From Candidatus Magasanikiibacteriota bacterium (GTDB taxonomy: Bacteria > Patescibacteriota > Patescibacteriia > Magasanikbacterales > GWA2-37-8): a stretch of 64,000 nt of DNA. The notes under the pieces are model-generated. The model did not search any database and was not told the DNA's origin. It saw only the letters and a list, made by a program, of their open reading frames with translations. Positions 8,763 through 50,914 of the stretch are shown piece by piece. The position numbers and the translations under genes were made by a program. The stretch lies in NCBI GenBank assembly GCA_041666745.1, contig JBAYGI010000001.1:91095-155094 (forward strand). Direction: 5' to 3'. Position 1 is the stretch's first letter. Each line of letters opens with the position of its first letter.

Positions 8763-8872
8763 TTAATTTAAAGCGTTTAGATCACTCGCACAATCTGAAA
8801 ACAAATTTTATTTTCAAATTGCGCGGCGAGTGATCAACTTTCTATCCCCACCGCCTTTTGTCTTACCACTAG

Positions 8873-10189
8873 TCACAGACTACGGAGGAACTGTCGCGTG
8901 ACCGCAACAATGCGGTTTACGTCCATCTCCGTGTTGGCGTAGCCGAACGATGCTCGGATGGCACCGATCGGAACGTCACCACCAATGTGGCGACGCAGGT
9001 TGTCGATTGTGATCGCATCGTTACTGATGGTGCTGTTGTACAACGCCTTGAACGCATCGATCTTGTAACCGAAAACCTTCTCATTGACGCCGGGGTTGCA
9101 GAAACAGCCCGTCCGCACGAACACTGCCTGCTCATTCGCGTACCGTTCGAACACCCATGCGTCTACGATCTGCTGACCTCGTTTGACGCTGAAGGTGACA
9201 ATGTCGGTACCGCGTGGGCTGTGGATGATGATAGAATTGTCTCCTTCGTGCAGAGTCTGCAAACTATCATACAACTTCACTCCCAGCACGGTGGCGTGCT
9301 CGCAGATGTCGCCCAGACTCTCCATGAACTGGAGCCCGGGAACGACGGCCGGAATGTTGGCGAAGTTCAACGTCCCGTCTTCAAATCGGGCATAGCCCAA
9401 CGTTTCGGGTGCGTAGAAGTTCTCATCCGTGACGCTGACGAGCAGAATGGATCCGCCCGCGAACCAGCGTTTGTGGAGTTTCGCGTACGCGCTCCGCTTG
9501 ATAATCATACAGCCGACACCGGTTGGGTAACCGAACAGCTTGTAGAAGCTGATCGGAACGAAATCCGGTTTGACCTTTGAGAGATTCAAGCGTTTTCCAC
9601 CACAGTAGGCAGCCGCGTCCAAGAGGACGCTCCAACCGCACGACTGGGCATAGTTCACCCAGCTCAAGCTGTGGTGGATCCCGGAGTAGTTGGACTTCGC
9701 TGGGTAGGCGAAGAGTCTGTTCCCCATGGACCTCGGATAGGTCAACATGCGCGTCAGAGTTGCTTCATCCAGCGTCAGATCATCGCTGATCGGCGCATAC
9801 CGGACGATCGCACCCTGTCGTCTGGCATCCTCGCGGAGGCCGTTGACCGAGTTGTGGTTGTCGGCGGTGAGTAGGTACTCTCCACCTTCAAAAAGAAAAT
9901 GCTGCAGAATCCGGATCGCGGCCGTCGCTCCGGAGGTGAAAATCACTTCATACTCGTCGGCGTTGGCGTTGAAATATTGCAGAATGGCTGCTCGTGCTTG
10001 CGTAATACCCTGCATCGCCGTCGCCGACGGCTTGTGGTGGGAGTGCGGGTTGCCAAGCAGGGTGCTTTGCAAGTACCGGCTCCAGCCTTCGATGAGCGAG
10101 ATGGGGGGCAACGCTGCCCCCGTCCAGTCGGCGTAGACCTTACCCCCATTGAGTTGGGGGAATTGTCCGTTGAGCGAAGCTGAATTCAT
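8873..10189 (-). CDS. class V aminotransferase-fold protein resembling the molybdenum-cofactor sulfurase N-terminal / cysteine desulfurase-like domain; GC-rich
   Basis: Fold V PLP-enzyme pattern and VRTGCFCNPG motif recalled from MOCOS-type proteins. Likely true start is the ATG at 10187-10189 with an AGGAG RBS, so the track ORF looks N-extended. About 55% GC versus about 36% in flanks. Confidence 0.6.
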   Translation of the reverse strand: MNSASLNGQFPQLNGGKVYADWTGAALPPISLIEGWSRYLQSTLLGNPHSHHKPSATAMQGITQARAAILQYFNANADEYEVIFTSGATAAIRILQHFLFEGGEYLLTADNHNSVNGLREDARRQGAIVRYAPISDDLTLDEATLTRMLTYPRSMGNRLFAYPAKSNYSGIHHSLSWVNYAQSCGWSVLLDAAAYCGGKRLNLSKVKPDFVPISFYKLFGYPTGVGCMIIKRSAYAKLHKRWFAGGSILLVSVTDENFYAPETLGYARFEDGTLNFANIPAVVPGLQFMESLGDICEHATVLGVKLYDSLQTLHEGDNSIIIHSPRGTDIVTFSVKRGQQIVDAWVFERYANEQAVFVRTGCFCNPGVNEKVFGYKIDAFKALYNSTISNDAITIDNLRRHIGGDVPIGAIRASFGYANTEMDVNRIVAVTRQFLRSL

Positions 10190-10305
10190 GGCGTACTCCT
10201 TCTTTGTTTTTTGGTTGGGGGGTTGTAGAAATAAAAAGAACTTTCTCTCTCTATATATAACATAATACACAGAGAATGGATCATCTTATCACAATTAAAT
10301 GTTTT

Positions 10306-10335
10306 TTGTCACCCCCCCCCGCTCCAACCTTAATT
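10306..10335 (+). promoter_or_regulatory. candidate promoter containing a 9-nt poly-C tract (10312-10320) between a TTGTCA -35-like hexamer and a weak -10; possible slipped-strand switch
   Basis: ttgtca-C9-gctccaacc-ttaatt lies 80 nt upstream of the small peptide gene. It has the same poly-C-in-spacer architecture as the promoters at 40276-40305 and 40999-41027. Confidence 0.35.
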
Positions 10336-10414
10336 TGCATTTTATGTGCTATTGTTATAGGATAATTTCAGTGTCTATCTGCCAACCGGTTGATTTCCAA
10401 CCAACGGAGGGTAT

Positions 10415-10579
10415 ATGGACAATCTCGAACGAATCGTCGGGTTGCTCTTGGTCGTCGTTTGCTCATGCGTGGTAGTTCTCTGCTGGCGTAAGTTGCGGAA
10501 GATGGCCGGGGAGACAAGCGCGAACGACCGCCTGTACGGAAAGCTCAAGTTACGCTTTCCAAAATCAAGGCGTTCTTGA
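10415..10579 (+). CDS. small single-TM peptide (54 aa) with basic C-tail; not in ORF track (<60 aa)
   Basis: GGAGGG RBS 5 nt upstream of ATG. Hydrophobic core IVGLLLVVVCSCVVVLCW followed by RKLRK. Lies in the GC-rich island downstream of the poly-C tract. Confidence 0.3.
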   Translation: MDNLERIVGLLLVVVCSCVVVLCWRKLRKMAGETSANDRLYGKLKLRFPKSRRS

Positions 10580-11306
10580 CAAGAGGTGCTGTTTTGTGTT
10601 AACTTTTTATTACCTTCGTCCGTAGCTTCCGACGGATCCGTATGTACTTTAGGGGAAGTGCAACGGTAGATTGACTCGTTGTTTATCTTACAGAATTGTG
10701 TCATCGGCCGATGGCGCGAAATGTAGGGATACTTTCCAAACTCCGGCTTTAATAGGGTGGTATCCTGGCCAAGAAGGTCATGCACCTTGTCTGCAAAGGC
10801 AACTTGGAGGTGCTGTGGTTTACCTGCGAATGGTGAATCAAGGTCCGCGAGTCATCGTACGAAAACCTCTGGGGTTAGAAAACGCGTTACACGGAAGCAT
10901 TGGTCAGAAAAGGCGCGTTTGCCAACCAACTGAACGAAGAATCCTCGTGCATTAGTGCGAGAACCGCTCCTAGTTTAGGAGGGAGGCAGTTTCCAAGACC
11001 GCTCATCCCTCGCCATAATCGCAAAATATTTGTTGTTATGGCGAGAGCGGCCTTGTCCGATTAAAACACCTTGCATTTTGCGGGGTGTTTTGTATTTAGG
11101 TCATTGCATGCGCATCTTGACTTTTTTCCCATTTTGTAGTATTGTAATCCATTAGTTCTTTTTACAAAGTTGCAAGTGGGGATATTTACCTTACATTATA
11201 TCAATTAGGGTTTTTGTCCCCCCTTACGACTTCAACAACACGTACAGCACTGACAGGGGCGCACCAGGTAGGTGTGAGTGTTGTTCACTAGTTCGGGAGG
11301 AAACCC

Positions 11307-11969
11307 ATGTTCGTAATTCGCAAAGGGAACCAACTGTTCAACGCTCTCGGACTGCTCTACGGTGAAATCGTCATCGAAAGGCAGAGCCCGGTGCTCGTCT
11401 ACACCCAGGCGCATGCGATCCGGTTTTTGCTGCAGGCCGTCAAAGAGCAGGTCATCACGAAAGACGAAGCTGACGAGATCGCGCGGCAGATCGGTGACGC
11501 CGGTATTGCGGCAGATCGGCCCAAGGTCTTCGAGATCGTAGCTTCGGCTACTCTGGAAGATGGCTTCGTGCCGTCGTTCCAGTTCGTGATCTGCAAGGAG
11601 TGCACGTTCCCGATTGCTCACGGTTACGTACAGCACGTGGACGCTGACAACAAGAGCATGAGCGGCCAGGTTCGCAATCTCATCGACGGTCTGCAACTCG
11701 CATTTGAGATGTACGCCGACGGGGTTCACGTCCTCGACTGCGTCAACGTTCTCAAGCAGATGATCGAGGCCGATCTGCCCATCGACGAGGAGGCGGCGAA
11801 GGGGCGGTTCAGTTCTCTACCGGCAGACCAGCTTGCAAGGCTCGACGAGGAGATGTCGGCCATGACAAGGAAGATCAATGTTCCTGGATTCGGCGACGTC
11901 ACTGTGATGAAGATTCTGTTGCCGTCCGACATGACCGAGCTGATCGCCCTGCTCGACCTGCTCCGCTAG
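11307..11969 (+). CDS. hypothetical protein (220 aa), GC-rich island cargo
   Basis: GGGAGG RBS and codon usage unlike the host genes. A rho-independent terminator (ccgactcaattgggtcgg plus T-run) follows at about 12130-12165. Confidence 0.5.
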   Translation: MFVIRKGNQLFNALGLLYGEIVIERQSPVLVYTQAHAIRFLLQAVKEQVITKDEADEIARQIGDAGIAADRPKVFEIVASATLEDGFVPSFQFVICKECTFPIAHGYVQHVDADNKSMSGQVRNLIDGLQLAFEMYADGVHVLDCVNVLKQMIEADLPIDEEAAKGRFSSLPADQLARLDEEMSAMTRKINVPGFGDVTVMKILLPSDMTELIALLDLLR

Positions 11970-12185
11970 CCGCCCGGCCCAACTCGCGTCTGGCCAACGC
12001 AACCTCCTGCACGGAGGAAAACATCACAAAAGGCACCGTCTTCTAGTAGAAGATGGTGAAGGGGAGACAGTCGATCGTCCGTGCGCGATCGACTACTTCC
12101 AATGAATATAATGACTTGTATTTATTGAAAGGGAACCGACTCAATTGGGTCGGTTTTTTATATTTTACCGTTTTTGTTTATCCAC

Positions 12186-30749: not shown

Positions 30750-30863
30750 AATGGTTATTATTATACCACTAATTTATCCAAAATAAAAGTAAATGTTATT
30801 TACTTGTGGATTGTGAGGTAGTCTTGTTTTGGAGAAAACCAAATTTTGTGGTATAATGATTTT

Positions 30864-38425: not shown

Positions 38426-39296
38426 AAATGAACCGGCCATTAAACGACAATTTTGCCATATAGGTGATCTAAACCACGGAGAAGAAATAGACACTTTGGA
38501 AGAAGAAAAATACACTGTGTGCCGAGGGCTGATTCATAAATATCCACATGAAGTATTGGTGGTTTTAACCAGACAATGCGCGGCGTATTGTCTTTTTTGT
38601 ACTCGTAAAAAAACACTATCACATGAAACAGGCGAGTTGGGAGACAAAGATTTCGCGGCGATGGTAAAATATTTAAAAAACCATCCGGAAGTTTATGAGG
38701 TTATAATTTCCGGCGGTGATCCACTGACCCAGCCGGCACTATTAAAAAAAGCGTTGCGAATTTTTGGAAAATTATCTCAAATAAAAATAATTCGCGTGGG
38801 GACGCGGTTGCATTTTTCCAATCCCAAAAAAATTAATTCCGCGGTGATTGACGCTTTGAAAGTTGTAAAAAAACAGCCGTTGTATTTAATGCTTCATTTC
38901 AATCATCCGGCTGAATTAAACAAAATGACTTTGTCCGCAGTAAAGCGTTTGCGCCAAGTTTCCGCCATGATGTTGTCGCAAACAGTATTGCTTAAAGGCG
39001 TAAATGATTCCGCCGAAATTTTATCCGAATTATTTGCCAAACTGACGCAAATCGGCATCAAGCCGTATTATCTTTTACAATGCGACAAGGTGCGAGGGGC
39101 GGAACATTTTATGGTGGATACAGAAAAGGCGGCTAAAATATATACTGATCTTTATAAAAAAATAAATGGTTTGGCCAAACCCACATTGGTGATTGACACA
39201 CCTTTTGGAGTTGGGAAAATTCCCATTCCACCGAATTTTTGGAATTGCGATAGAGGAAAATATGTGGATTATAATGGGAAATACATTTTGATATAG
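38415..39296 (+). CDS. KamA-family radical SAM protein (lysine 2,3-aminomutase / EpmB-like), short form
   Basis: CAAYCLFCTRK radical-SAM cluster motif, with the RVGTR and YLLQCDKVRGAEHF blocks typical of the KamA family. Only 293 aa. Confidence 0.7.
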   Translation: MLNKNEPAIKRQFCHIGDLNHGEEIDTLEEEKYTVCRGLIHKYPHEVLVVLTRQCAAYCLFCTRKKTLSHETGELGDKDFAAMVKYLKNHPEVYEVIISGGDPLTQPALLKKALRIFGKLSQIKIIRVGTRLHFSNPKKINSAVIDALKVVKKQPLYLMLHFNHPAELNKMTLSAVKRLRQVSAMMLSQTVLLKGVNDSAEILSELFAKLTQIGIKPYYLLQCDKVRGAEHFMVDTEKAAKIYTDLYKKINGLAKPTLVIDTPFGVGKIPIPPNFWNCDRGKYVDYNGKYILI

Positions 39297-39337
39297 ATCA
39301 TTTTGTGGTATAATAATTTTTTAAAATATTATAAACT

Positions 39338-39736
39338 ATGTTGGAGGGGGAAAAATTGCAAAATTTTGTTGATTGGACAAAATTAAAAATAAAGTTGCAT
39401 CTTTCAGAGGTAAAAAAGTTTTTTAATGAGAGAGATATTTGGTGGGCAAGCTTGGGGGTGAATATCGGTTTTGAACAAGACGGAAAGCATCAAAATTTTG
39501 AACGACCAATTTTGGTGTTGAAAAAATTTAATAATGAAGTTTTGCTCATTTTGCCTATCACCAGTAAATACAAGAAAAATAAGTATTATTACGGTTTTGA
39601 ATATAATGGTAAAATTTTCGCGGTAATTTTGTCTCAAGTGAGATTGATAAGCAGCAAGCGCCTGTTAAGAAAAATACGCATGTTGTCAGAACGGGAATTT
39701 GATGAGATAAAGAAATTGGTCAAAGATATAATATAA
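39338..39736 (+). CDS. PemK/MazF-like toxin-fold protein (solo, no obvious antitoxin)
   Basis: ERPILVL...LILPITS...QVRLISSKRL resembles the MazF/PemK core. No upstream antitoxin ORF. Confidence 0.45.
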   Translation: MLEGEKLQNFVDWTKLKIKLHLSEVKKFFNERDIWWASLGVNIGFEQDGKHQNFERPILVLKKFNNEVLLILPITSKYKKNKYYYGFEYNGKIFAVILSQVRLISSKRLLRKIRMLSEREFDEIKKLVKDII

Positions 39737-39853
39737 AAAAACGACCCAAGTTCTTCAAAGAAGATCAAGGGTCTCGGAGGCCAAAGCCATTTGATGAATA
39801 TATAGTATCATTGATGTGGAATTTTGTCAATTTTTTATCCCCAGTAAAAAAGC

Positions 39854-39946
39854 AAAACCGCCTGTCGTCTAAAAGTTCAAATGTTTGAACGCTTAGACAT
39901 GTGCAGGCGGTTTTTAATTACCTCCATGTCTTTCCCCGGGGCCAAA
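39854..39946. repeat. 93-bp repeat copy 1: complex terminator hairpin downstream of holin-like gene 1
   Basis: Identical to 40544-40636. Nested stems aaaaccgcctg/caggcggtttt with inner gtctaa/ttagac and gttcaaa/tttgaac. Confidence 0.8.
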
Positions 39947-39976
39947 GTTGCCACCGGGGGTGCGTGGGCCGACTTG

Positions 39977-40204
39977 TCACTCCTCCTTCTCCTCGGTGTT
40001 GGGGGTTTTGGGTTTCCTGATTTCCTTGAGAACGCTTTTCTTTGCCTTGTCGATGTGATCGGCGATGAGAAGGGTTGTTATTCCCAGCATCGCCACCACT
40101 GAGGCCATCGCCGCAATAATTTCGGATTGGATTATCCCGAAATATCGAATTACGGCGTACCAGATAGCCACAACTATTGTAGCGAAAAGCACTTTTAGAA
40201 ACAT
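39977..40204 (-). CDS. small two-TM holin-like membrane protein (75 aa) with charged C-tail; cassette 1
   Basis: RBS aggagagggaat before the ATG at 40202-40204 (the track ORF begins at an upstream GTG). Two TMs then DHIDKAKKSVLKEIRKPKTPNTEEKEE. Confidence 0.5.
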   Translation of the reverse strand: MFLKVLFATIVVAIWYAVIRYFGIIQSEIIAAMASVVAMLGITTLLIADHIDKAKKSVLKEIRKPKTPNTEEKEE

Positions 40205-40275
40205 TTTATTCCCTCTCCTGCCCGCTGGCCAATATCCGTGCACCACGCACGAGGTACGACCAAAGCGAACATCTC

Positions 40276-40305
40276 ATAATACCACAGCTTCGGGGGGGGG
40301 CGTCA
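40276..40305 (-). promoter_or_regulatory. sigma70-like promoter TTGACG-18-TATTAT with a C8 tract (G8 on the + strand, 40292-40299) in the spacer; putative phase-variable switch for cassette 1
   Basis: Minus strand reads ttgacg-cccccccc-gaagctgtgg-tattat. The spacer is 18 nt, suboptimal. Confidence 0.5.
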
Positions 40306-40543
40306 AGAGGTTATTCTATCAAACCAATTTTTATGGTAAAATATATTCGCAATTTTAATGTTACTGAATTCCGTAATATTAAATGAAAATTTTAAAGTAT
40401 TAATATAAAAAAAACGAAACCTACTCTTGTGGAGTAGGAATCTCGGGGCTTTTTATAGGCGAACCTATAAAAGCAAAATGTAATTGTAATATACTATAAA
40501 ATTTCAATTTTGTCAAACACTTGTCCACATCATATAAAAAACA

Positions 40544-40636
40544 AAAACCGCCTGTCGTCTAAAAGTTCAAATGTTTGAACGCTTAGACATGTGCAGGCGG
40601 TTTTTAATTACCTCCATGTCTTTCCCCGGGGCCAAA
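40544..40636. repeat. 93-bp repeat copy 2 (terminator) downstream of holin-like gene 2
   Basis: 100% identical to 39854-39946. Confidence 0.8.
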
Positions 40637-40725
40637 TGCCGCGACCGGGGATGTCGGATGTCATTTTTATCCTCCTGTTCTGCCCTTGAGAGTAGCGCGC
40701 TCACACGGTGGTGCAGATGGAGTTG

Positions 40726-40923
40726 CTACTCCCGTCTGCCAGAGTGTTGAGCGTACGTGATCATGGCGAAAGCACATACGATTGCGGATCCAGCTCCAGG
40801 TGCGGATATCCACACCATCGGAATGGCGGGGTAGATTGAGTGGAACAGCATCGCACAGATCGCTATCAGCATCATCCAGATGCTACACATCAATGTTATG
40901 ACGATCCTCTGAAACGTAGTCAT
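40726..40923 (-). CDS. small two-TM holin-like membrane protein (65 aa); cassette 2 (paralogous flanks, divergent CDS)
   Basis: RBS aagagggtcaaa before the ATG. Two TMs plus a short charged tail. Upstream and downstream flanks are homologous to cassette 1. Confidence 0.5.
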   Translation of the reverse strand: MTTFQRIVITLMCSIWMMLIAICAMLFHSIYPAIPMVWISAPGAGSAIVCAFAMITYAQHSGRRE

Positions 40924-40998
40924 TTTGACCCTCTTTTGCCTGCCCGCTGGTCAATATTCGTGCGTTATGCACAAGATACGGCCAAAGCGGGACTTCGC

Positions 40999-41027
40999 AT
41001 CATACCACACAAACGGGGGGGCGTCAA
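40999..41027 (-). promoter_or_regulatory. sigma70-like promoter TTGACG-17-TATGAT with a C7 tract (G7 on the + strand, 41015-41021) in the spacer; putative phase-variable switch for cassette 2
   Basis: Minus strand reads ttgacg-ccccccc-gtttgtgtgg-tatgat. The spacer is 17 nt, optimal. Confidence 0.5.
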
Positions 41028-41052
41028 GGGGGTGGTGTGAAAAAAACAATTT

Positions 41053-41064
41053 TTGTGGTATAAT
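41053..41064 (+). promoter_or_regulatory. extended -10 promoter (TTGTGGTATAAT) 6 nt upstream of the ppsA ATG; probable leaderless transcript
   Basis: TGgTATAAT at 41056-41064 and ATG at 41071. A near-identical element (tttatggtaaaat) is duplicated at about 40335 with no downstream gene. Confidence 0.45.
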
Positions 41065-41070
41065 ATCCCC

Positions 41071-44022
41071 ATGCAATATATCCGCTGGTTTAAAGACCTA
41101 ACAATCAGGGATATATCTTTTGTGGGCGGGAAAAATGCGTCGCTCGGAGAGATGTATTCCAAACTTACCAAAAAGGGTGTACCAATACCAAATGGTTTTG
41201 CGTTGACCAGCGAAGCGTATTTTAAATTTCTCAAAGAAAATAATTTGGATAAAAAGATAAAAGAGATTTTGAAAAATTTGGATGTAAAAAATGTGCATGC
41301 GCTTTCGGTTGCCGGCAGTAAAGTTCGCCAGATGATTTTATCCGCTACTTTTCCAAAAGATATCGCGAATGAAATAAAAATCGCGTATAAGGATCTGAGT
41401 AAAAAAAGTAAACGCGCCAATGTGGACACTGCAGTGCGATCCTCCGCCACGGCCGAAGATTTACCCGATGCCAGTTTTGCCGGACAACAAGAAACATATT
41501 TGAATGTTCGTGGTGAAAAAGAAATTTTGATTGCTTGTAAAAAATGTATTTCATCGCTGTTTACCGATCGCGCGATTTCTTATCGCGAGGCCAAAGGTTA
41601 CGACCATATGTCCATCGCGCTATCTGTCGGTGTGCAAGAAATGGTACGCAGTGACCTTGGTGCTTCCGGCGTGATGTTTACATTAGACACCGAATCCGGT
41701 TTTCGCGGGGTGGTTTTGATAAATGCTTCGTATGGTTTGGGTGAATATGTGGTCAAGGGTCAGGTAACACCGGATCAGTTTTATGTTTTTAAAGATGGAA
41801 TAAAAAATGGATATAAATCTATTATCAGCAGAAAATTGGGGAGTAAAGAAGTGAAATTAGTATATGGAAAAATTGGTACTAAGCAAGAAAAAGTTTTGGT
41901 GTCTGACCAAAAACAATATTGTTTGACCGACGATGAAATTATTCAACTTTCCAAATGGGGTGTGCAAATCGAAGAACACTATGGCCATCCGATGGATATT
42001 GAATGGGCGAAAGATGGAAACACCGGAAAATTATACATCGTGCAGGCGCGCGGTGAGACCGTGAAATCGCAAGCGAAAATTACTGCCATTGAAACATATA
42101 TTTTACAAAGAAAAGGAGAAATTTTGGTAGAGGGTGTAAGTGTCGGGCAGAAAATCGGGCAGGGGAAAGCTCATGTCATCACTTCACCAAAACAAATGAA
42201 GGATTTCAAAGCTGGAGAAGTTTTGGTAACTAGAATTACTGATCCGGATTGGGAACCGGTAATGCGTATCGCCAGCGCAATTGTTACCGAGCAGGGTGGT
42301 AAAACATCTCACGCCGCGATCGTGTCGCGTGAATTGGGAGTGCCGTGTATAGTCGGCGCCGCCAAAGCGCGACAGTTGATAAAAAACACTCAAGAAATTA
42401 CTGTGTCTTGTGCCGAAGGTGAAGTAGGTTATATTTATAAAGGACGTTTGCCTTTTAGTGTAGAACGTACTGAACTGAAAAATTTACCACAAACCAAAAC
42501 CAAAATAATGATAAATGCCGGCAATCCGGACAACGCCTTTGCTCTGTCGGCCATTCCTAGCGATGGCATCGGGTTGGCGCGCGAAGAATTTATTTTTACA
42601 AATTTTATCAAAATTCATCCTCTGGCTCTGGTGCATTTTAAAGATATAAAAGATAAACAGGTAAGAGCAAAAATCGAATCACTGACCGTAGGTTATAAGG
42701 ATAAAACTCAATATTTGGTAGACAAACTCGCCGAAGGTATTGCTTTTTTGGCGGCGGCTTTTCATCCACATGATGTGATCGTGCGTTTGTCGGATTTCAA
42801 AACCAACGAATACGCTACTTTAATCGGTGGAAAAGATTTTGAACCGCACGAAGAAAACCCGATGCTCGGTTGGCGTGGAGCGAGTCGCTATTATGATCCA
42901 AAATACAAACCCGGATTCAAATTGGAATGCGCGGCCATCAAAAAAGCGCGTGAGGTTTGGGGATTAAAAAATATTATTGTCATGGTACCATTTTGTCGCA
43001 CGGTAGAGGAAGGCAAAAAAGTATTGGAAACCATGAAAGAATTTCATTTAGAGCGTGGCAAAGATGGTTTGCAAGTCTATGTGATGTGCGAGATTCCATC
43101 CAATGTAATTTTGGCCAAAGAATTTTCGCAGATTTTTGATGGATTTTCTATCGGTAGTAATGATTTGACCCAGCTCACTTTGGGGGTGGACAGAGATTCT
43201 TCGCTGGTGTCACATGTGTATGATGAAAATAACGCGGCGGTAAAAATATTAATTCGTCAAGTAATTCAGGTAGCGCATCAATACAAACGCAAAGTTGGAA
43301 TTTGTGGACAAGCGCCAAGTGACTATCCGGAGTTTGCGGAATTTTTGGTACAGGAGGGGATAGATAGTATTTCTCTCAATCCCGATACCGCCCTGAAAAC
43401 TCGCACCCGTATCGCGGCGATGGAAAAGAAATTGGGGAAAAGTAAAGGCGGTATACTCAAAGCGACGATGGCGGCCAAGTCACTATTGGTTTTGGGCGTG
43501 GTTGGTTTGACCTCAATATTGGGTGGGTATGGTTGTCAAACAATAAACAATCAAACTGTATCAGACAATCTCAAAGCCAGTATGCAACAACAAGTATTGG
43601 AAATGAAGGCGCAGTTGCGTCAAGAAATTACCAACGAACTTGCCAAACAATTACCAACAGAATCAACTTACAGCGACGATAGTTTTGTAAAAATTAAATT
43701 AAAATATCCAAATAGTTGGCAAACCAATCGTTGGGAGGACGGTGTGAAATTTTCAAATTCCGACGAGTCAGAATATTTGATGGTGTTTGTCCAAAAGATG
43801 GGCCATCCGATACCCGAAGAAAAAATCACGACTACTACTTGGAATAATTATCCAGCCAAACGCTTGACAGACGCTAATCAAAAAGATGGCACACCATATG
43901 AGGTGTTAGAAATTTATCCACTTGGATACAAAAAAACCAAAGAAATAATCGAGTTGCGCGGTGACCCAAAAACGTTTGAGGGTAGTTTGAAAAAGATCGA
44001 AGAATTTACAGTGCCGAAATAA
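41071..44022 (+). CDS. ppsA: phosphoenolpyruvate synthase with an in-frame C-terminal extension of about 190 aa containing a signal-peptide-like hydrophobic segment
   Basis: N-terminal ATP-grasp and PEP-utilising domains (GGKNASLGEM..., TSHAAIVSRELGVPCIVG). Canonical PpsA homology ends near ...RIAAMEKKLGK (about residue 795). MAAKSLLVLGVVGLTSILGGYGC and a ~170-aa domain follow. The track start at 41053 is a TTG; the ATG at 41071 matches PpsA N-termini. Confidence 0.88.
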   Translation: MQYIRWFKDLTIRDISFVGGKNASLGEMYSKLTKKGVPIPNGFALTSEAYFKFLKENNLDKKIKEILKNLDVKNVHALSVAGSKVRQMILSATFPKDIANEIKIAYKDLSKKSKRANVDTAVRSSATAEDLPDASFAGQQETYLNVRGEKEILIACKKCISSLFTDRAISYREAKGYDHMSIALSVGVQEMVRSDLGASGVMFTLDTESGFRGVVLINASYGLGEYVVKGQVTPDQFYVFKDGIKNGYKSIISRKLGSKEVKLVYGKIGTKQEKVLVSDQKQYCLTDDEIIQLSKWGVQIEEHYGHPMDIEWAKDGNTGKLYIVQARGETVKSQAKITAIETYILQRKGEILVEGVSVGQKIGQGKAHVITSPKQMKDFKAGEVLVTRITDPDWEPVMRIASAIVTEQGGKTSHAAIVSRELGVPCIVGAAKARQLIKNTQEITVSCAEGEVGYIYKGRLPFSVERTELKNLPQTKTKIMINAGNPDNAFALSAIPSDGIGLAREEFIFTNFIKIHPLALVHFKDIKDKQVRAKIESLTVGYKDKTQYLVDKLAEGIAFLAAAFHPHDVIVRLSDFKTNEYATLIGGKDFEPHEENPMLGWRGASRYYDPKYKPGFKLECAAIKKAREVWGLKNIIVMVPFCRTVEEGKKVLETMKEFHLERGKDGLQVYVMCEIPSNVILAKEFSQIFDGFSIGSNDLTQLTLGVDRDSSLVSHVYDENNAAVKILIRQVIQVAHQYKRKVGICGQAPSDYPEFAEFLVQEGIDSISLNPDTALKTRTRIAAMEKKLGKSKGGILKATMAAKSLLVLGVVGLTSILGGYGCQTINNQTVSDNLKASMQQQVLEMKAQLRQEITNELAKQLPTESTYSDDSFVKIKLKYPNSWQTNRWEDGVKFSNSDESEYLMVFVQKMGHPIPEEKITTTTWNNYPAKRLTDANQKDGTPYEVLEIYPLGYKKTKEIIELRGDPKTFEGSLKKIEEFTVPK

Positions 44023-44143: not shown

Positions 44144-44416
44144 TTATAGATTACGGTAGATATCGTGTTTTCCGATGGAGATAAATAAAATATCGCCATT
44201 TTGTTGTCTTTCAAATATTATCCGATAGCCACCGGTTATAGAAATAGACCACAACCCCTCAAGTTTTCCATGCAGGGCGTGGAGACGAAGTGATGGGTGC
44301 AATGGGTTATCTTTAAAAATCTTTTCTTTTTTTGCGGCCAAGACCACTAATTCTTTCGGAAGTTTTTTAAGTTCAATTACAAATTTAGAAGAATATAAAA
44401 TTTCTTTTATTATCAT
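44144..44416 (-). CDS. RelE/ParE-family type II toxin
   Basis: HALHGKLEGLWSISITGGYRIIFE...ISIGKHDIY pattern over 90 aa. Overlaps the upstream antitoxin gene by 4 nt (ATGA). Confidence 0.6.
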   Translation of the reverse strand: MIIKEILYSSKFVIELKKLPKELVVLAAKKEKIFKDNPLHPSLRLHALHGKLEGLWSISITGGYRIIFERQQNGDILFISIGKHDIYRNL

Positions 44417-44640
44417 ACTAAATCAGCCAACGATTTTGCTTTTATTGATTTTCCCGCGTGATATTCTTTGCGCGCCTCATCTACAGTTTTTAATAATTCG
44501 GATTCAGAAATCAAATCAGAATCTTCTTTGAAAAGATATTTTATATATGAACTAACCGAATTGTATCCGCGCTTTATAGTAAGAAGCTTAATTTGCTTCA
44601 CATCAGTAGCGGGAAGTGAGATGCTGAGAACTTGACGCAT
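44413..44640 (-). CDS. putative antitoxin (RelB/Phd-like small protein) of the RelE-like toxin
   Basis: 75 aa, immediately upstream and overlapping the toxin gene. Sequence is not diagnostic on its own. Confidence 0.45.
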   Translation of the reverse strand: MRQVLSISLPATDVKQIKLLTIKRGYNSVSSYIKYLFKEDSDLISESELLKTVDEARKEYHAGKSIKAKSLADLV

Positions 44641-44772
44641 ATGATTTATTTTTAAAATATTATTATATTGTAATTGTAATACAATTGTAATACATTGTCA
44701 AGTTTTTTCAGCTTAATTGGCTAAACTTGACTAAAATAAGTTTTTGCCATATACTATCCTTTGTAAAAACTT

Positions 44773-44846
44773 GGGTCGGTAGTTCAACTGGTTAGAGCAC
44801 TGCCCTGTCACGGCAGAAGTTGCGGGTTCGAGTCCCGTCCGACCCG
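44773..44846 (+). tRNA. tRNA-Asp (anticodon GTC), CCA not encoded
   Basis: Acceptor GGGTCGG/CCGACCC, anticodon stem CTGCC/GGCAG with loop CTGTCAC, T-arm GCGGG-TTCGAGT-CCCGT, discriminator G. Confidence 0.9.
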
Positions 44847-46421
44847 CAGTTCGCAACGAAGTGAGTTTAAACGCTCACTTTTTGCTTTTGTTAAGGGTAA
44901 TTTGTCCAGTTCGAGCGTGATATATTTCTGCTCAATAGGTTTTATATAATTTTCGGTTGCAATTAACCATTTCTTCGGCTCAATAACGAGTTTTCTGTCT
45001 TTTAATTGTTGGTTCGAGCCTAATCGCAAAAGTATCTCTCTTTTGTCTTTTTCAGTTGCTTTTTTAAAGTTAGCTCGGGCTTGTATAGCAAATTTAATTT
45101 CTTCCGTTAAATTGTCGTTTTCGATACCATGTTTTTTGATTTCAACTACTTTTTGCGTGAGTTTAACAATTTCTTTTTCGTATTCGTTTTTTTGTGTGGT
45201 GTATTCGTCATCGGACAACAAGCCCTTGCAACTTAATTTTGTTAAATTACTTTTTTCCAACTTTACTTTGGTAACATTTTCTTCCAAATTTTTAATCACA
45301 TTTTGTTTTTCGTTAGGGTTGGTTTTTTCGTCTTTATCTAACATCTCAAAAAACAATTCTTTAAACTTTGGCCTAAACTCATATTTGGCGAGCATGGTAT
45401 CAATTTGTTTTTCCAATCCTTTTACCTCAATCGCTGGCTGTTCGCACTTGTATGACGGCTTTTTATGCGTACAACGATAATATGTATAGCTGGCTTGCTT
45501 ACCAGTGGTTTTAATTATTTTATTCTTCTGGTCGGCACAAACTAAACACCCACAATCGGCACAGCGAATTATTCCAGAATAGGCAAAATCATGCGTTCGT
45601 TTTCTCGGCTTTCCGTTATGGCCTAATAACATTTGTATGCGGTCGTATTCTTCCAAGTTTATCATCGCTTTGTGTTTGCCTTGCTTTTGCAAGCCATTAT
45701 ATTCGATAATGCCAGCGTAAAAAATGTTAGTAAACATTCTGTACAGTGAAGCTCTAGCCAATTTACCACTTTTATTTTTTCTTGTTGCCTTTGGCTTAAA
45801 ATTCCATTCATTGTTTAACTTGTCCAAAACTGCGGGAACAGAATAATTGCCCGAGAGCATTAAATCAAACGCTTTGCGAATTGTTTTAAATCTTTCGTCA
45901 TCTATTTCAATCGTACTCAAGCCGATATTTCTAACATTCACATAACCATTCGGACACATATTTGGTTGCCAACCCATTTGATATTTTTTCTCTAACCCAC
46001 GCCGAACATCCTTGCCTAATTTTGAAGAAAAGTATTGCGACTGGCTTAACGCCATTTGCAACATCATTATGCCCTCGGGGGAGTTATCGAAGTTGTACGA
46101 GCCAAATTTGAGGTCGTGGATAACACCAGTACGGACTAGGTAAGTAACTGTTGAAGCGTCAATTTCGTTTCGGCTTAATCGGTCTGGGTGCCACGCAATC
46201 ACTCCAGTGGCCTCGCCTTTGCGTATTCTTTTGATCATGTTCTCAAACACTGGTCTTTCGTATGGGCTAAAAGCCGAGTGTTTTTCCTCCAGTATTTCCA
46301 CAATATCCACATTACCAAAAAGTTCTTTAACTTTATCAATTTGGCTACTAATGGATAATGCTTGCCTTTCTTCGCCTTCGCTCGATTTCCGAACATAGGC
46401 AAAAAATTTAGTTGATTTCAT
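44808..46421 (-). CDS. large serine recombinase (resolvase catalytic domain, recombinase domain, zinc ribbon, coiled coil)
   Basis: N-terminal AYVRKSSEGEERQ, C-rich CADCGC...YYRCTHKK and a long C-terminal coiled coil. Likely start is M at MKSTKFF. Its 3' end runs antisense into tRNA-Asp. Confidence 0.8.
   Translation of the reverse strand: MKSTKFFAYVRKSSEGEERQALSISSQIDKVKELFGNVDIVEILEEKHSAFSPYERPVFENMIKRIRKGEATGVIAWHPDRLSRNEIDASTVTYLVRTGVIHDLKFGSYNFDNSPEGIMMLQMALSQSQYFSSKLGKDVRRGLEKKYQMGWQPNMCPNGYVNVRNIGLSTIEIDDERFKTIRKAFDLMLSGNYSVPAVLDKLNNEWNFKPKATRKNKSGKLARASLYRMFTNIFYAGIIEYNGLQKQGKHKAMINLEEYDRIQMLLGHNGKPRKRTHDFAYSGIIRCADCGCLVCADQKNKIIKTTGKQASYTYYRCTHKKPSYKCEQPAIEVKGLEKQIDTMLAKYEFRPKFKELFFEMLDKDEKTNPNEKQNVIKNLEENVTKVKLEKSNLTKLSCKGLLSDDEYTTQKNEYEKEIVKLTQKVVEIKKHGIENDNLTEEIKFAIQARANFKKATEKDKREILLRLGSNQQLKDRKLVIEPKKWLIATENYIKPIEQKYITLELDKLPLTKAKSERLNSLRCELRVGRDSNPQLLP
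44844..44912. repeat. attL-like 69-bp direct repeat
   Basis: ccgcagttcgcaacgaagtgagtttaaacgctcactttttgcttttgttaagggtaatttgtccagttc. Confidence 0.7.
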
Positions 46422-46810
46422 AATGAAAATGATTAAAAACAAAAAAGGACAGCCCTGGCTTACCCAACACAAATAGCCAAGAAGACTATTTCATCGGACA
46501 GGACTGCCCATCTCTGGTATGAAAATAAAAGAGTCTTCTTTTACGGCATTTTGAATTGTGTTGAGTAAGCCCTCATATAGTATCAATTTTCTTTGCTCAA
46601 TTCAAGAGCGTGTATATCCTGTTTACTCACAGGTCTTAATAGTATTTTTCCAAGGACGAACATGTCCATACATTCTGCATACGCTTTTTCGTAGCTCAAT
46701 TTCTCATGAAATTCCGCCTCGTAGATCATCTGGAATTTCAGGACAAAATTGTCCGTTAATTGCATACCGTTTTGTGTTGATGAAAGCCATAAAAATATGT
46801 TTAAACTTAA

Positions 46811-47680
46811 CTAGGAATCTTCTTTAAGAGTGTAGGCGGAATATTCCACCTTTCCAGTGTATTCACTGGTAAATATTTTTTCAAAGATCGGTTTAATGGT
46901 CGGCTTAACAAATCGATTGAAAAAACTAATTGCTTTACCGCCAGTCATTTCAACTGGCTTATTTAATTGTCGAGAACAAAAGAATTTCTTTTTGCCAAAC
47001 ATTCTTTTATCAAACATATCTTTTCCCAAGTATTTGCAGAAGTACGCACCCATATTGGTTACAGTATTCACCTCTCGTATTTTCACAAACCCATTTTTCC
47101 AATACTTCATCGCAAACCGTCTTTCCCACGCAAAGGTATCAACATTGTCGGGCAAGACAATGTTGCACAATAGGTGGTAATGAACAGATCCGCCCTTTTC
47201 TTTCTTGTTGCCGTAATAATCAACATCTTTCTGAAATTCAACGACGGCGATATATTCAAAGGCTGGTTTAGCTCGCAGTATTCGTTTCATGGCGGTGTTA
47301 AACAGGCGATTGGCCTCTAATAGCTCGGTTGTGCTTTCTGCAAAGGTTAGGGTGAGGAATTTACGCAGGTGTGGGTTGGCATTGGTGAGACGGCGAATGT
47401 TGGTTCTAGTACGAGATATGGAAAAGGTGGTTTTTTGATTTTGGGTTTGGTGCAAGTCAGCGACTTCTTGCTCGCAACCCCATTCTTCCACCAATTCCAT
47501 ATATTCAACGTCTTTTTGTTTGGCTTGAGCTTGTTTTTCTTTAATCAGTTCTTTTTGTTCATCGGTTCTATTTTTCTTTCGGGTGTATCCTTTGATTATT
47601 TTCTTTGTTTTATACACATACACCTCGATTTCTTTACCAGACTTTATTAGTTTAAAGTCATACAGTTCAATCATAGGCAT
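46811..47680 (-). CDS. rolling-circle replication initiator (HUH endonuclease, pC194/pUB110 Rep_1-like)
   Basis: Motif I FLTLTF, motif II HYHLL (HUH), motif III YFCKYLGKD with catalytic Tyr. Confidence 0.75.
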   Translation of the reverse strand: MPMIELYDFKLIKSGKEIEVYVYKTKKIIKGYTRKKNRTDEQKELIKEKQAQAKQKDVEYMELVEEWGCEQEVADLHQTQNQKTTFSISRTRTNIRRLTNANPHLRKFLTLTFAESTTELLEANRLFNTAMKRILRAKPAFEYIAVVEFQKDVDYYGNKKEKGGSVHYHLLCNIVLPDNVDTFAWERRFAMKYWKNGFVKIREVNTVTNMGAYFCKYLGKDMFDKRMFGKKKFFCSRQLNKPVEMTGGKAISFFNRFVKPTIKPIFEKIFTSEYTGKVEYSAYTLKEDS

Positions 47681-47699
47681 GATGTTGTTAAAAGAGCGG

Positions 47700-48130
47700 A
47701 TTACAATAGTAGCCTCATTCTGCGGTTAAATGTGTGCTTATAATCTAGTTAATGAGGCTAAACAGATTTATGTCAGTGCACAGGCCTGATACACTAACAA
47801 CGGGAATCTTTGTTTTCTCTTTTCTCCTTGGCAGGCAGCCAGTTTTTCGGGCGGGGCAACCGCCCGAAAAAACTGATCTGCACTGTACCCAAAGGTGGAA
47901 AGTAGATATAAAACAAAACACCTCCCTTAGTAGGGGGTGCAATCCTTCCCGAGCACAAATACAGTAGTATGTTCCGAGCGTTATATAATAGTTTCTCATC
48001 GGAACATTGTTATTATACTCTAATTTTTTAGAGTTGTCAAAGTTCGATAATAATGATTATGTGCGTTGTTAAAACTGGCAAATATAATGGAAATAATGTA
48101 TACTTTACGTTAAGTAAAAGATCGCTGTGT
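47700..48130. promoter_or_regulatory. non-coding region beside rep with strong hairpins; candidate replication origin (dso/sso) and divergent promoters
   Basis: Perfect 15-bp stem cagtttttcgggcgg-ggcaa-ccgcccgaaaaactg at about 47851-47885. 10-bp IR tagcctcatt/aatgaggcta at about 47711-47759. Confidence 0.3.
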
Positions 48131-48131
48131 T

Positions 48132-48929
48132 ATGCCAATTTTTAACGACTTAAATTTAAACGACTGGAAAAACTCGGAAATATGGACAGATAGTCTGTGG
48201 ATTATTTCAGAGAGGGACAAGTCGGGGAAACATAGTGGTTTTTACCATGGAAATTTTGTTCCACAAATACCACGGCAGTTAATTTTGAGATACAGCAAGA
48301 AAAACGAGGTAATTTTTGATCCATTTGTTGGAAGTGGTACAACCGCTTTTGAGGCGGAAACCTTGGGAAGAAATTTTATTGGTGTAGATATACAAAAAAC
48401 ACTTGTTGAGCAACTAAAAGAAAAAGTTGATAATAAAAAATATTTTTCAGAAATTGTTTTAGGTGATAGTTCCAAAGACGAAACATTTGACGAAGTCAAA
48501 GATATACTAAAAAAACACAAAAAGAAGAATATCGGTTTAGCGATTCTTCATCCGCCTTATGCCGATATTATAAAATTTAGTAATTTAAAAGGTGATCTTT
48601 CCAATACTAAAACTCTAAAAGAATTTTTAAATGGTTTCGGAGTGATTTTGAAAAATACGGTATCTATACTAGAAAAAGGTCATTATTTAGCCATAGTTAT
48701 GGGTGATAAATACACAAAAGGCCAATGGATTCCGTTGGGATTTTATTGTATGAATGAAGCCCAAAAATTGGGACTAACCTTAAAAAGTGTAATTGTCAAA
48801 AATATGGAGGGTAATAGAGCAAAACAGCACAAAGAAAGCATTTGGCGATACAGAGCATTATCAAGTGATTATTACATTTTTAAACACGAATATATATTTA
48901 TTTTTAAATATGAGCGAGATTCCATTTAA
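48132..48929 (+). CDS. DNA amino-methyltransferase (N6-adenine/N4-cytosine class)
   Basis: Motif I DPFVGSGTT and motif IV HPPY (a (D/N/S)PPY variant). Confidence 0.75.
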   Translation: MPIFNDLNLNDWKNSEIWTDSLWIISERDKSGKHSGFYHGNFVPQIPRQLILRYSKKNEVIFDPFVGSGTTAFEAETLGRNFIGVDIQKTLVEQLKEKVDNKKYFSEIVLGDSSKDETFDEVKDILKKHKKKNIGLAILHPPYADIIKFSNLKGDLSNTKTLKEFLNGFGVILKNTVSILEKGHYLAIVMGDKYTKGQWIPLGFYCMNEAQKLGLTLKSVIVKNMEGNRAKQHKESIWRYRALSSDYYIFKHEYIFIFKYERDSI

Positions 48930-49581
48930 ACCAAACACCACATCCTATAAAGATTTTGAGACATTAAGTGATCTAAAATGGCATTGTACTAAATGTGAAT
49001 TAAAATCTGGTCAAGCAAAAACTTGGCAGGTTTGGAGACAAGAAAAAGGCATACAAATGGATGTTGACGCAGATGGAAAGCATGCCGCCAGACTTTTTTG
49101 TAATAAATGTCAGAGCACAACTGTACATCGCAAACTTAAATCATTAGTTATAACTTCGGAAACAAAATCAAGGTCTGGCCTCCCGTCTTCTTTTACTAAC
49201 AAAGTAAAAAATTTATACAAAAATGTAGAGGCAATTTTTTTACGTAAACTTTCCCCTCGCCTTCTAGAAGTTGACCATAAATTTCCACAAGTGCGTTGGG
49301 GCAAGGATGAAGAAAAGAATAGCTCGGAAATGTCAGACGTAGAAATTAAAGAAAAATTTATACTTCTTACTCGTGATAATAATCTACTAAAATCGAGAGA
49401 ATGTGAAAGGTGCTATAAAACTGGAAAACGCGGATGTTTCCCAGGAATTAAATATTGGCATAAAGGAAAAGAAGATTGGGATAAGACGATAGACAAACAC
49501 GATAAAAAGGGGTGCGAAGGTTGTTTTTGGTATGATCCTTATAAATGGCGTGATGAGTTAAACGGTATTGTTAATAAATAA
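48910..49581 (+). CDS. putative restriction endonuclease partner (Cys-rich Zn-finger / HNH-like)
   Basis: Starts at an ATG overlapping the MTase 3' end by 20 nt (the track ORF is N-extended). Multiple CxxC pairs and a VDHKFP...W region. Assignment rests mainly on position. Confidence 0.4.
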   Translation: MSEIPFKPNTTSYKDFETLSDLKWHCTKCELKSGQAKTWQVWRQEKGIQMDVDADGKHAARLFCNKCQSTTVHRKLKSLVITSETKSRSGLPSSFTNKVKNLYKNVEAIFLRKLSPRLLEVDHKFPQVRWGKDEEKNSSEMSDVEIKEKFILLTRDNNLLKSRECERCYKTGKRGCFPGIKYWHKGKEDWDKTIDKHDKKGCEGCFWYDPYKWRDELNGIVNK

Positions 49582-49586
49582 TATGG

Positions 49587-49835
49587 ATGTTGTTAACAAA
49601 ATGCTTGTATTATATTTTCTTCTATGATATGATAATGATAGATAGATTTAAAGTTAAAGAGCTTATGTCTAAAAAGAAAATAGACAATTTTACCAAGTTG
49701 GCCAAAATGTTAGGTATTTCAAAAAACCAACTCTCTAATATTCTGTCTAACAAGTATAGACCAATAAAAAGCAACGTTGTTGAGATTGCAAAATTTTTAG
49801 GCGTCAATGCGTTAGATATTATTAAAAAAGAGTAA
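49587..49835 (+). CDS. HTH XRE-family regulator (likely R-M controller C-protein); true start probably the internal Met at about 49635
   Basis: Helix-turn-helix TKLAKMLGISKNQLSNIL, directly upstream of the second MTase. Confidence 0.55.
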   Translation: MLLTKCLYYIFFYDMIMIDRFKVKELMSKKKIDNFTKLAKMLGISKNQLSNILSNKYRPIKSNVVEIAKFLGVNALDIIKKE

Positions 49836-50914
49836 TGATTATGAATTACATTGGTTCAAAATTATCCTTGTTGACGTTTTTAGAAGAGTCTATAAACAAA
49901 GTTGTTAAGAACACAAAAAATAAAGTCTTTTGTGATTTGTTTGCCGGCACTGGAATAGTTGGGACATATTTTAAAAGAAAAGGATATAAAGTTATAGCGA
50001 ATGATATTCAATATTATAGCTATGTGTTAAGCCGTCATTATGTTGGCAATCATAATGAATTTTCTTTCTCAAAATTATTTCAAGAATTTCCAGAACTAAA
50101 AAATATTGAAGTGAAAAATAGAAAGAACTTTGTATGTGATTATTTGGCAAAACTAAAAGGCGAGAAGGGTTTTATCTATAATAATTATTGTTCTGGTGGA
50201 ACAATAAATAAAGCGGTAGAAAGATTATATTTTTCAGATGAAAATGGGATGAGGTGCGACGCTATAAGAAAAAAGATAGAGCAATGGAAAGTGCAGGGTT
50301 TAATAAATGATAATGAATATTATTTTTTGCTTGCTACTGTTCTTGAATCGGTTGATAAATACGCAAATACAGCCTCGGTTTATGGTGCTTTTTTAAAAAA
50401 GTTGAAGAAGTCCGCTCTTAACAGTCTTGTTCTGAAGCCAGCCGAATTGATTATTAACGACCAAGATCATCTTGTATATAACGAAGATATAAACAAAGTT
50501 GTTGAAAAAATTGAGGGTGATATTTTGTATTTAGATCCGCCGTATAATCATAGACAGTATGCATCAAATTATCATATTTTAGAAACTATCGCTAAATATG
50601 ATAATCCAAAAATTCACGGTAAAACTGGTTTGAGAGAATATGAAAATCAAAAATCTCTTTATTGTTCAAAATCACAAGTCAAAAAAGCCTTTACAGATTT
50701 AATCTTGAAATCTAAAGTAAAATATATTTTTCTTAGCTATAATAATGAGGGTTTGATGAGTGCAGATGACATAAAAGAAGTTATGAGCTTGCGTGGCCAA
50801 TACGGGGTTTTTACCAAAGAATATAATAGATTCAAAGCTGATAAGAGTGAAAATAGGGATTTTAAAGCAGAAAAAACAACAGAATATTTGCATTACGTTG
50901 TTTGTGAAAAATAA
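49835..50914 (+). CDS. D12-class (Dam-like) N6-adenine DNA methyltransferase
   Basis: YIGSK, DLFAGTG (motif I) and LDPPY (motif IV), in the order typical of Dam/DpnM. Confidence 0.85.
   Translation: MIMNYIGSKLSLLTFLEESINKVVKNTKNKVFCDLFAGTGIVGTYFKRKGYKVIANDIQYYSYVLSRHYVGNHNEFSFSKLFQEFPELKNIEVKNRKNFVCDYLAKLKGEKGFIYNNYCSGGTINKAVERLYFSDENGMRCDAIRKKIEQWKVQGLINDNEYYFLLATVLESVDKYANTASVYGAFLKKLKKSALNSLVLKPAELIINDQDHLVYNEDINKVVEKIEGDILYLDPPYNHRQYASNYHILETIAKYDNPKIHGKTGLREYENQKSLYCSKSQVKKAFTDLILKSKVKYIFLSYNNEGLMSADDIKEVMSLRGQYGVFTKEYNRFKADKSENRDFKAEKTTEYLHYVVCEK

Follow-up and report, generated by a model that had tools for sequence, protein, structure and literature searches.

Tandem units for small membrane proteins with poly-C tracts in their promoter spacers, a candidate phase-variable locus in a Magasanikbacteria genome

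The 64,000-nucleotide (nt) stretch of Candidatus Magasanikiibacteriota DNA analysed here (hereafter the window) carries two tandem, homologous units on its minus strand, U1 (39845-40306) and U2 (40535-41027), flanked by a PemK/MazF-like gene (39338-39736, plus strand) and by ppsA (41071-44022). Each unit has its own promoter, a 5' leader, an open reading frame (ORF) for a small two-helix membrane protein and a terminator, and in each a homopolymer of C lies between the -35 and -10 hexamers. The evidence supports U1 and U2 as real, autonomous, tandem transcription units for small membrane proteins. The best explanation of the arrangement, to which we assign a probability of roughly 40%, includes functional phase variation, the length of each tract tuning the promoter that contains it. 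The window belongs to a Candidatus Magasanikbacteria metagenome-assembled genome and corresponds to the ENA contig ERZ27249449:k141_1179167 (222 kb), with which it is identical across the 20.4 kb compared.

Promoters and their C tracts

The promoter elements of the two units are the following:

40301-40306, minus strand: -35 hexamer of U1, TTGACG
40292-40300, minus strand: poly-C tract of U1 (C9), in the -35-proximal half of a 19-nt spacer
40276-40284, minus strand: extended -10 of U1, TGGTATTAT, with the -10 TATTAT at 40281-40276
41022-41027, minus strand: -35 hexamer of U2, TTGACG
41015-41021, minus strand: poly-C tract of U2 (C7), in a 17-nt spacer
40999-41007, minus strand: extended -10 of U2, TGGTATGAT, with the -10 TATGAT at 41004-40999

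The geometry reads TTGACG-C9-N10-TATTAT in U1 and TTGACG-C7-N10-TATGAT in U2, approximately 66-69 nt 5' of the ATG; between tract and -10 hexamer the minus strand has, 5' to 3', GAAGCTGTGG in U1 and GTTTGTGTGG in U2. Both units thus carry a C homopolymer within the -35/-10 spacer, the position that characterises contingency loci of the porA/fim/vlp type. A first, sequence-only reading of this DNA had proposed both pairs of hexamers, which we confirm, together with the C7 tract and 17-nt spacer of U2, but had given U1 a C8 tract and an 18-nt spacer. The U1 tract is in fact C9 (three overlapping C7 matches) in a 19-nt spacer, two slips from the optimum, so that the toggling by one slipped C suggested in that reading fails for U1. 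A promoter scanner accepting spacers of 16-18 nt lists the U2 promoter (10/12 match, with TG) and not that of U1.

The two promoters have kept the -35 hexamer, the seven C's common to both tracts, TGTGG and the -10 hexamer, while four of the ten other spacer bases and all sequence 5' of the -35 have diverged. The sole change in promoter length falls within the C tract (C9 versus C7), which implies an indel change inside it. Such a pattern is what purifying selection would leave. Non-randomness is suggested by the location of all three runs of at least seven G or C in the window, each intergenic and in a promoter region of a GC-rich island, and by the lack of such runs in the loci fetched from related genomes.

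We propose that U1 and U2 are autonomous genes of the moron type, acquired horizontally, that encode ORFan membrane proteins with two helices; the genes would be transcribed from these promoters and their products would act in the cell envelope. The length of the poly-C tract would set the spacer of the TTGACG -35 / TGn-extended -10 promoter of each gene, and slipped-strand mispairing within the population would alter that length and with it promoter strength, heritably and reversibly, so that each of the two would be a contingency gene switching independently of the other. For the tract lengths in the assembly, this model predicts U2 (17 nt) to be on or high and U1 (19 nt) to be low.

A different account, which we regard as a tentative but serious possibility, is that the genes are real and acquired whereas the tracts are incidental leftovers of GC-rich donor DNA, expression being driven by the extended -10 and either constitutive or conventionally regulated. 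Several observations favour it and weigh against phase variation. Both -10 hexamers are preceded by TGn, and host promoters across the window are likewise of the extended -10, TGnTATAAT type with weak -35 boxes (recurring consensus TTTTGTGGTATAAT; examples at 30768(-), 30849(+), 39306(+), 41056(+) and 57875(+)). Extended -10 promoters depend less on the -35 box and on spacing. With TGn as the host norm and weak -35 boxes, the spacing of the -35 may therefore matter little, and boxes of this type would favour graded expression over ON/OFF switching. Both tracts are short, C7 in particular by comparison with Bordetella pertussis, in which only tracts longer than C8 varied in culture; even so, C7 and C8 alleles of fimX are found segregating among its strains (PMC1891110). 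Runs of at least seven C are not significantly enriched in the window (seven overlapping matches versus an expectation of 3.9; 11 of 100 shuffles had at least as many), and they are likelier anyway in foreign DNA of 50% GC. The probability that seven C's were retained by chance at the local divergence of 24-40% is approximately 0.03-0.15. Other C6-C9 runs lie in another GC-rich island, at different positions relative to promoters, and the vpma T-tract, a promoter-adjacent homopolymer, shows that such a tract need not vary and can be inert (PMC2268961).

Incidental tracts are more difficult to reconcile with a -35 that matches at five of six positions, abuts the tract in both copies and stands 17 and 19 nt from the -10 while the neighbouring bases have diverged. 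The confinement of the only length change to the tract, and the lack of comparable runs in the loci of related genomes, likewise speak for tracts that matter, as in the phase-variable reading.

A third tract, again C9 (10312-10320, in the region 10283-10579), occurs in another GC-rich island (8797-12157), located between secA and a secD/F-type gene. The plus strand there reads TTGTCA-C9-N10-TAATTT, the same geometry as U1, and approximately 79 nt further downstream a GGAGGG Shine-Dalgarno precedes an ORF (10415-10579) of 54 amino acids (aa) with a single transmembrane (TM) segment and a basic tail. Read on the minus strand, the hexamer supplies a GTGACA -35, 17 nt from the extended -10 TGATAAGAT of a class-V aminotransferase gene (8873-10192, minus strand). 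This tract fits promoters on both strands, so its role is ambiguous; lying beside a small TM ORF, it hints that such switches may be more numerous. The island also contains a 220-aa ORFan (11307-11969) and a GC-rich stretch with few ORFs (10580-11200). A perfect extended -10 on the minus strand, TGATATAAT (11195-11203), with G6 at the -35 position, precedes this stretch. The stretch could be a long non-coding RNA; a search of it against Rfam gave no match.

Two small membrane-protein genes within conserved flanks

The transcribed parts of the units comprise these elements:

39977-40204, minus strand: ORF1, 75 aa, hydrophobic segments at residues 1-19 and 29-47, then a 26-residue lysine/glutamate-rich tail
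40726-40923, minus strand: ORF2, 65 aa, hydrophobic segments at residues 7-25 and 37-55, then the basic tail QHSGRRE
40205-40270, minus strand: 5' leader of U1, approximately 66 nt, with a long hairpin
40924-40992, minus strand: 5' leader of U2, approximately 69 nt, homologous to that of U1 and with the same hairpin
39934-39959, minus strand: hairpin CCCCGG...CCGGGG in the 3' untranslated region (UTR) of U1
39853-39915, minus strand: long interrupted 59-nt hairpin of U1 with an A-run before and a T-run after it, within the 93-nt block described below
40542-40651, minus strand: 3' end of U2, with the CCCCGG hairpin at 40623-40651 and the terminator at 40542-40606

From the letters alone, two minus-strand genes had been predicted, 75 and 65 aa long, each for a protein with two TM segments; we find two 19-residue hydrophobic segments in either ORF. 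Both proteins are predicted to span the membrane twice with their N- and C-termini inside. Single-sequence AlphaFold2 models ORF2 as a helical hairpin (helices 3-30 and 37-63; predicted local distance difference test score, pLDDT, 77) and ORF1 as one long helix (2-62, pLDDT 81), without modelling the turn.

Chance accounts poorly for such ORFs. Among random frames of matching composition, 3.6% stay open over 65 codons, and 0.06% of the open ones have at least two hydrophobic segments (defined as 19-residue stretches averaging at least 1.6 on the Kyte-Doolittle scale), as both ORFs do; the joint probability of an open frame with at least two hydrophobic helices is thus approximately 2e-5 per ORF. 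The two ATGs align, each with a Shine-Dalgarno, and the homology between the units ends at the start codon. The third codon position is the GC-richest in both ORFs (GC3 of 0.59 and 0.65); long host ORFs average 0.39 ± 0.10, so that both values lie some two standard deviations higher, an excess that would fit a foreign origin of the genes. The NCBI prokaryotic genome annotation pipeline (PGAP) annotates a 64-aa version of ORF1 from an internal GTG. Judged from these signals, ORF1 and ORF2 are almost certainly real small membrane-protein genes.

The opposite view, that the ORFs are accidental open frames in a non-coding RNA or in decaying foreign DNA, seems to us very improbable. It could appeal to the gene caller of the ENA contig, which left 39737-41070 empty and hence called neither ORF, a point that also counts against phase-variable genes, and to the conservation of the flanks around unconserved centres. 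It could appeal, further, to the dearth of homologues: in 5.8 billion clustered proteins (word-index search) and 1.84 billion representatives (HMMER), ORF1 matched only itself, and no candidate emerged for ORF2. Such a view would have to explain a joint chance of approximately 2e-5 reached by both ORFs, the aligned starts with their Shine-Dalgarno sequences, the GC3 profile and the PGAP annotation, and it finds no help in Rfam, where neither leader nor 3' block matched a family at the gathering score. The best sub-threshold Rfam models (microRNA or rnk-leader, E of at least 0.15) reflect hairpin and U-run only.

Other searches were equally negative. Neither ORF has a significant family in Pfam, PHROGs, NCBIfam or PADLOC; the best family matches of ORF1 are Pfam Phage_holin_9 (E=0.11; 12.7 bits, cut-off 27) and PHROG 2359 (E=0.03), and ORF2 has no holin-family match in Pfam or PHROGs. 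Tblastn of ORF2 and blastn of the leader and 3' block against phages and plasmids found nothing, nor did scans of viral contigs with ORF1, ORF2 and the MazF-like protein. Searches of metagenome and viral contigs with leader and 3'-block patterns gave nothing real, the five viral-contig matches to the leader pattern being chance matches without flanking similarity. No further copy of the units exists in the window or in 9.6 kb of additional contig, and a scan of genome contigs for ppsA yielded no close relative with a usable upstream region.

The DNA around the two genes is homologous, as had been proposed. Promoter and leader (40217-40344 in U1 versus 40939-41066 in U2) are 76% identical, the 3' regions 39820-39962 and 40506-40653 show 88% homology, and within these a 93-nt block (39854-39946) recurs exactly at 40544-40636, the coordinates given in the sequence-only reading being right to the base. 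The coding segments have diverged as that reading stated: BLASTP finds no match between ORF1 and ORF2, and blastn recovers the flanks only. Global alignment scores slightly above shuffles (p ~0.014, for protein and DNA alike), an excess that may reflect shared architecture instead of remote paralogy. The units have 50-51% GC versus 39.5% for the window, in line with the GC richness noted before, and the AT-rich spacer between them has 26%. We reject an assembly artefact, since the 93-102 nt of the repeat fall below the assembler k of 141 and the same ORF1 is present in an NCBI assembly made independently.

The leader reads CGCTTTGGNCGTANCTNGTGC...CCAGCGGGCAGG, and both copies carry a GAGGG Shine-Dalgarno 5-6 nt 5' of the ATG (6 nt in U1), which is unpaired in the minimum-free-energy and consensus folds of both. 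In the consensus hairpin, all four substitutions in paired columns preserve pairing while the loop differs at four of five positions, a modest sign, from two sequences only, of a functional hairpin. The interrupted hairpin of U1, between its A-run and T-run, would serve as a bidirectional intrinsic terminator.

Each 3' UTR also holds a minus-strand mini-ORF (39920-39983 and 40610-40666) that ends in ...WPRGKTWR* and stops 8 nt 5' of the terminator stem. That of U2 has 18 aa and an AGGAGG-7nt-ATG start; that of U1 has 20 aa and a GTG overlapping the ORF1 stop codon; they differ by a 6-nt indel that preserves the frame. They could be translation-coupled attenuators or a coincidence. Inspection led us to discard two other candidates: an extension of the ORFs into the 3' block by read-through or frameshifting, the frames of the two units being different, and plus-strand ORFs starting in the terminator, which are without Shine-Dalgarno sequences.

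An insertion at the ligA-ppsA junction and a duplication within it

The segment that contains the units, and the features that record their history, are:

38426-41054, no strand: lineage-specific insertion of approximately 2.6 kb with a radical-SAM gene, the MazF-like gene, U1 and U2
39338-39736, plus strand: PemK/MazF-like gene, 132 aa (Pfam, 1.4e-11), convergent with U1
39301-39315 and 41051-41065, plus strand: full copies of the promoter TTTTGTGGTATAATA
40329-40343, plus strand: orphan copy of this ppsA / MazF-gene promoter, 13/15 identical to the ppsA promoter
39734-39830, minus strand: short unit 3' of U1, promoter-like site TTGACA-17-TACTAT (39802-39830), hairpin at 39741-39775, U-run
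40410-40516, minus strand: paralogous short unit 3' of U2, promoter-like site TTGACA-17-TATATT (40488-40516, 11/12 match), U-run

By blastn, homology to relatives breaks off where ligA ends (approximately 38425) and returns in the -10 region of ppsA (approximately 41055). Homologues of ppsA are 84-88% identical in sister Magasanikbacteria. Four relatives have ligA followed by ppsA after a gap of 15 nt; in a fifth, which occurs in the same sample too, an unrelated ORF of 132 aa occupies the junction; and U1 and U2 are absent from this locus in all five of these closest relatives examined. From the break in homology and the short gap in relatives, the 2.6-kb segment is therefore a lineage-specific insertion. 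The locus thereby illustrates how conserved housekeeping junctions such as this one serve, in these reduced genomes, as landing sites for small autonomous genes of foreign composition.

The junction (loci L088-L096) is a hot spot of strain-specific insertion in this Magasanikbacteria clade, and the region 3' of ppsA is equally variable. An integrated element (44144-50000) lies there, opening with a HigB/YafQ-like toxin gene pair; it includes a large serine recombinase gene whose 3' end overlaps the 3' part of tRNA-Asp (44773-44847), followed by genes for a rolling-circle Rep, an N6/N4 methyltransferase and helix-turn-helix proteins. The ppsA product has a C-terminal extension of approximately 190 residues past PEP-utilizers_C, with a hydrophobic segment; its Magasanikbacteria homologues share a length of approximately 980-990 aa.

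The duplication left several traces. A relic of the last MazF-like codons and the following hairpin recurs between the units (39722-39775 versus 40394-40440), and the orphan promoter at 40329-40343 bears out the earlier claim that the divergent ppsA-type promoter was copied along. The short unit 3' of U1 lies opposite the MazF-like 3' UTR, in antisense orientation; its paralogue has a hairpin with a UUCG loop (40446-40470) and a terminator (40420-40438) before its U-run. These small RNA (sRNA)-like units of approximately 60-75 nt differ in their hairpin sequences and preserve their architecture and a single-stranded CCGAGA motif. The repetition of MazF relic, promoter and short unit indicates that the ancestral module consisted of promoter, MazF-like gene, short unit and small-protein gene. 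A tandem duplication of this module, of approximately 0.7-1 kb, would have produced U1 and U2, the second MazF copy being deleted afterwards; the coding parts would have been replaced or diversified beyond recognition, the parts retained being the promoter, the leader with its 5' hairpin and Shine-Dalgarno, and the two-hairpin terminator. Since 93 identical nt beside flanks of 76% identity are incompatible with uniform divergence (0.76^93 ~1e-11), recent gene conversion is indicated, by which the terminator was probably homogenised.

An sRNA starting at the orphan promoter and ending at the hairpins near 40420-40450, as had been proposed, is not borne out: the T-runs of the hairpins at 40420-40470 are on the minus strand, the wrong one for a plus-strand transcript. 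Transcription from the orphan promoter would more likely continue as far as the bidirectional terminator (40542-40606), yielding an RNA antisense to the short unit.

Comparison with known systems

In topology, ORF1 and ORF2 recall type I toxins and class II holins, which are likewise small and hydrophobic, with two TM helices, both termini inside, a charged C-terminal tail and tandem copies. The sequence-only reading had labelled them accordingly, a label that does not hold beyond topology; TM helices with a charged tail are generic and not diagnostic. We consider it improbable that the proteins are membrane-damaging toxins (type I-like or holin-like), held in check by the downstream short RNAs or by antisense transcription from the plus strand; as a variant, they might form a joint addiction or abortive-infection module with the adjacent MazF-like toxin. 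The two-TM topology with its charged tail would suit this idea, as would the sRNA-like unit that follows each gene (promoter, hairpins, U-run) with an architecture conserved despite differing hairpin sequences. So would the duplication of the module along with a MazF-like gene next to which no antitoxin gene lies, and the location in accessory DNA near other toxin genes. The holin side fails on context: neither protein has a significant holin, toxin or defence family match, and no endolysin or other muralytic enzyme and no phage gene lies near U1 and U2, whose neighbours are ligA, the radical-SAM gene, the MazF-like gene and ppsA. Regarding type I systems, no antisense (plus-strand) promoter-like site was found inside either unit, and an antitoxin role of the sRNA candidates can be rejected, as their duplex energies with the mRNAs are no better than those of shuffles and complementary 7-mers are at chance level (~1.5). 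Typical type I toxins have a single TM segment, usually fewer than 60 aa and a hidden Shine-Dalgarno; ORF1 and ORF2 are larger, have two segments and a Shine-Dalgarno that is not sequestered, and, in contrast to paralogous type I loci, are unrelated to each other in sequence.

Integron cassettes can also be set aside. There is no IntI (the nearest recombinase is the serine recombinase past ppsA), the 59-nt hairpin has on inspection no RYYYAAC / GTTRRRY core sites, and the units, unlike cassettes, carry their own promoters and common 5' leaders. Closer are the morons of phages and prophages, which like U1 and U2 bring their own promoter and intrinsic terminator, have an atypical GC content and sit between conserved neighbours. 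In contrast to morons, our units lie in no recognisable prophage; approximately 3.7 kb separate them from the start of the nearest mobile element, that of the serine recombinase and Rep at tRNA-Asp, past ppsA.

What would follow depends on the tracts. Patescibacteria have a lifestyle that depends on cell-cell contact, and their regulation is almost unstudied. If the tracts slip, stochastic switching of the surface or envelope would occur in this group; if they are invariant, the locus amounts to a pair of ORFan membrane-protein genes confined to this strain. A full-text literature search found no paper meaningfully linking Patescibacteria and phase variation. It is conceivable, if doubtful, that U1 and U2 form the first contingency locus described in the Candidate Phyla Radiation (CPR)/Patescibacteria, an acquired and duplicated module that would switch two unrelated ORFan two-TM envelope proteins independently.

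The vlp genes of Mycoplasma hyorhinis offer one precedent for phase variation of this kind, as far as they are described in a later paper: indels in the -35/-10 spacer switch transcription on or off (Citti and Wise 1995, cited in PMC2268961). In that description, vlp genes share with U1 and U2 the tandem paralogues with conserved 5' regulatory regions, divergent coding regions and a homopolymer in each spacer, and their members switch independently in a small-genome, host-dependent bacterium (cited in PMC2268961). The vlp tract is poly-A and ours poly-C, and U1 and U2 are only two copies that, unlike vlp, also share a 3' terminator. The Vlp products are lipoproteins that have a conserved signal peptide and external domains built of repeats, whereas ORF1 and ORF2 show on inspection neither repeats nor a lipobox ([LVI][ASTVI][GAS]C after an n/h-region) and have N-termini that are not conserved, which led us to reject a vlp-like lipoprotein family.

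Concerning the tract itself, the locus resembles porA of Neisseria meningitidis and fim2, fim3 and fimX of Bordetella, where, as in U1 and U2, a G/C homopolymer lies in the core promoter of a gene for a membrane or surface protein. Tract length in porA and fim sets the spacing of the promoter elements and thereby the transcript level, in a graded manner and not as strict ON/OFF (PMC3639595, PMC1891110). The poly-G tract of porA, between -35 and -10, gives high expression at 11G, approximately 2-fold lower at 10G and much lower at 9G (PMC3639595), and C7 versus C8 in the promoter C-stretch of fimX makes an approximately 4-fold difference (PMC1891110). The porA and fim tracts are usually 9-15 nt or longer, with variation experimentally shown, whereas the C9 and C7 of U1 and U2 are read from an assembly; our promoters, unlike those of porA and fim, have an extended -10, and the products are ORFan two-TM peptides instead of porins or fimbrial subunits. 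The hosts differ as well, mucosal pathogens on one side and a CPR bacterium on the other. By analogy with these systems, and with considerable doubt, the locus may represent the logic of vlp and porA at work in an ultra-small, probably host-attached environmental bacterium.

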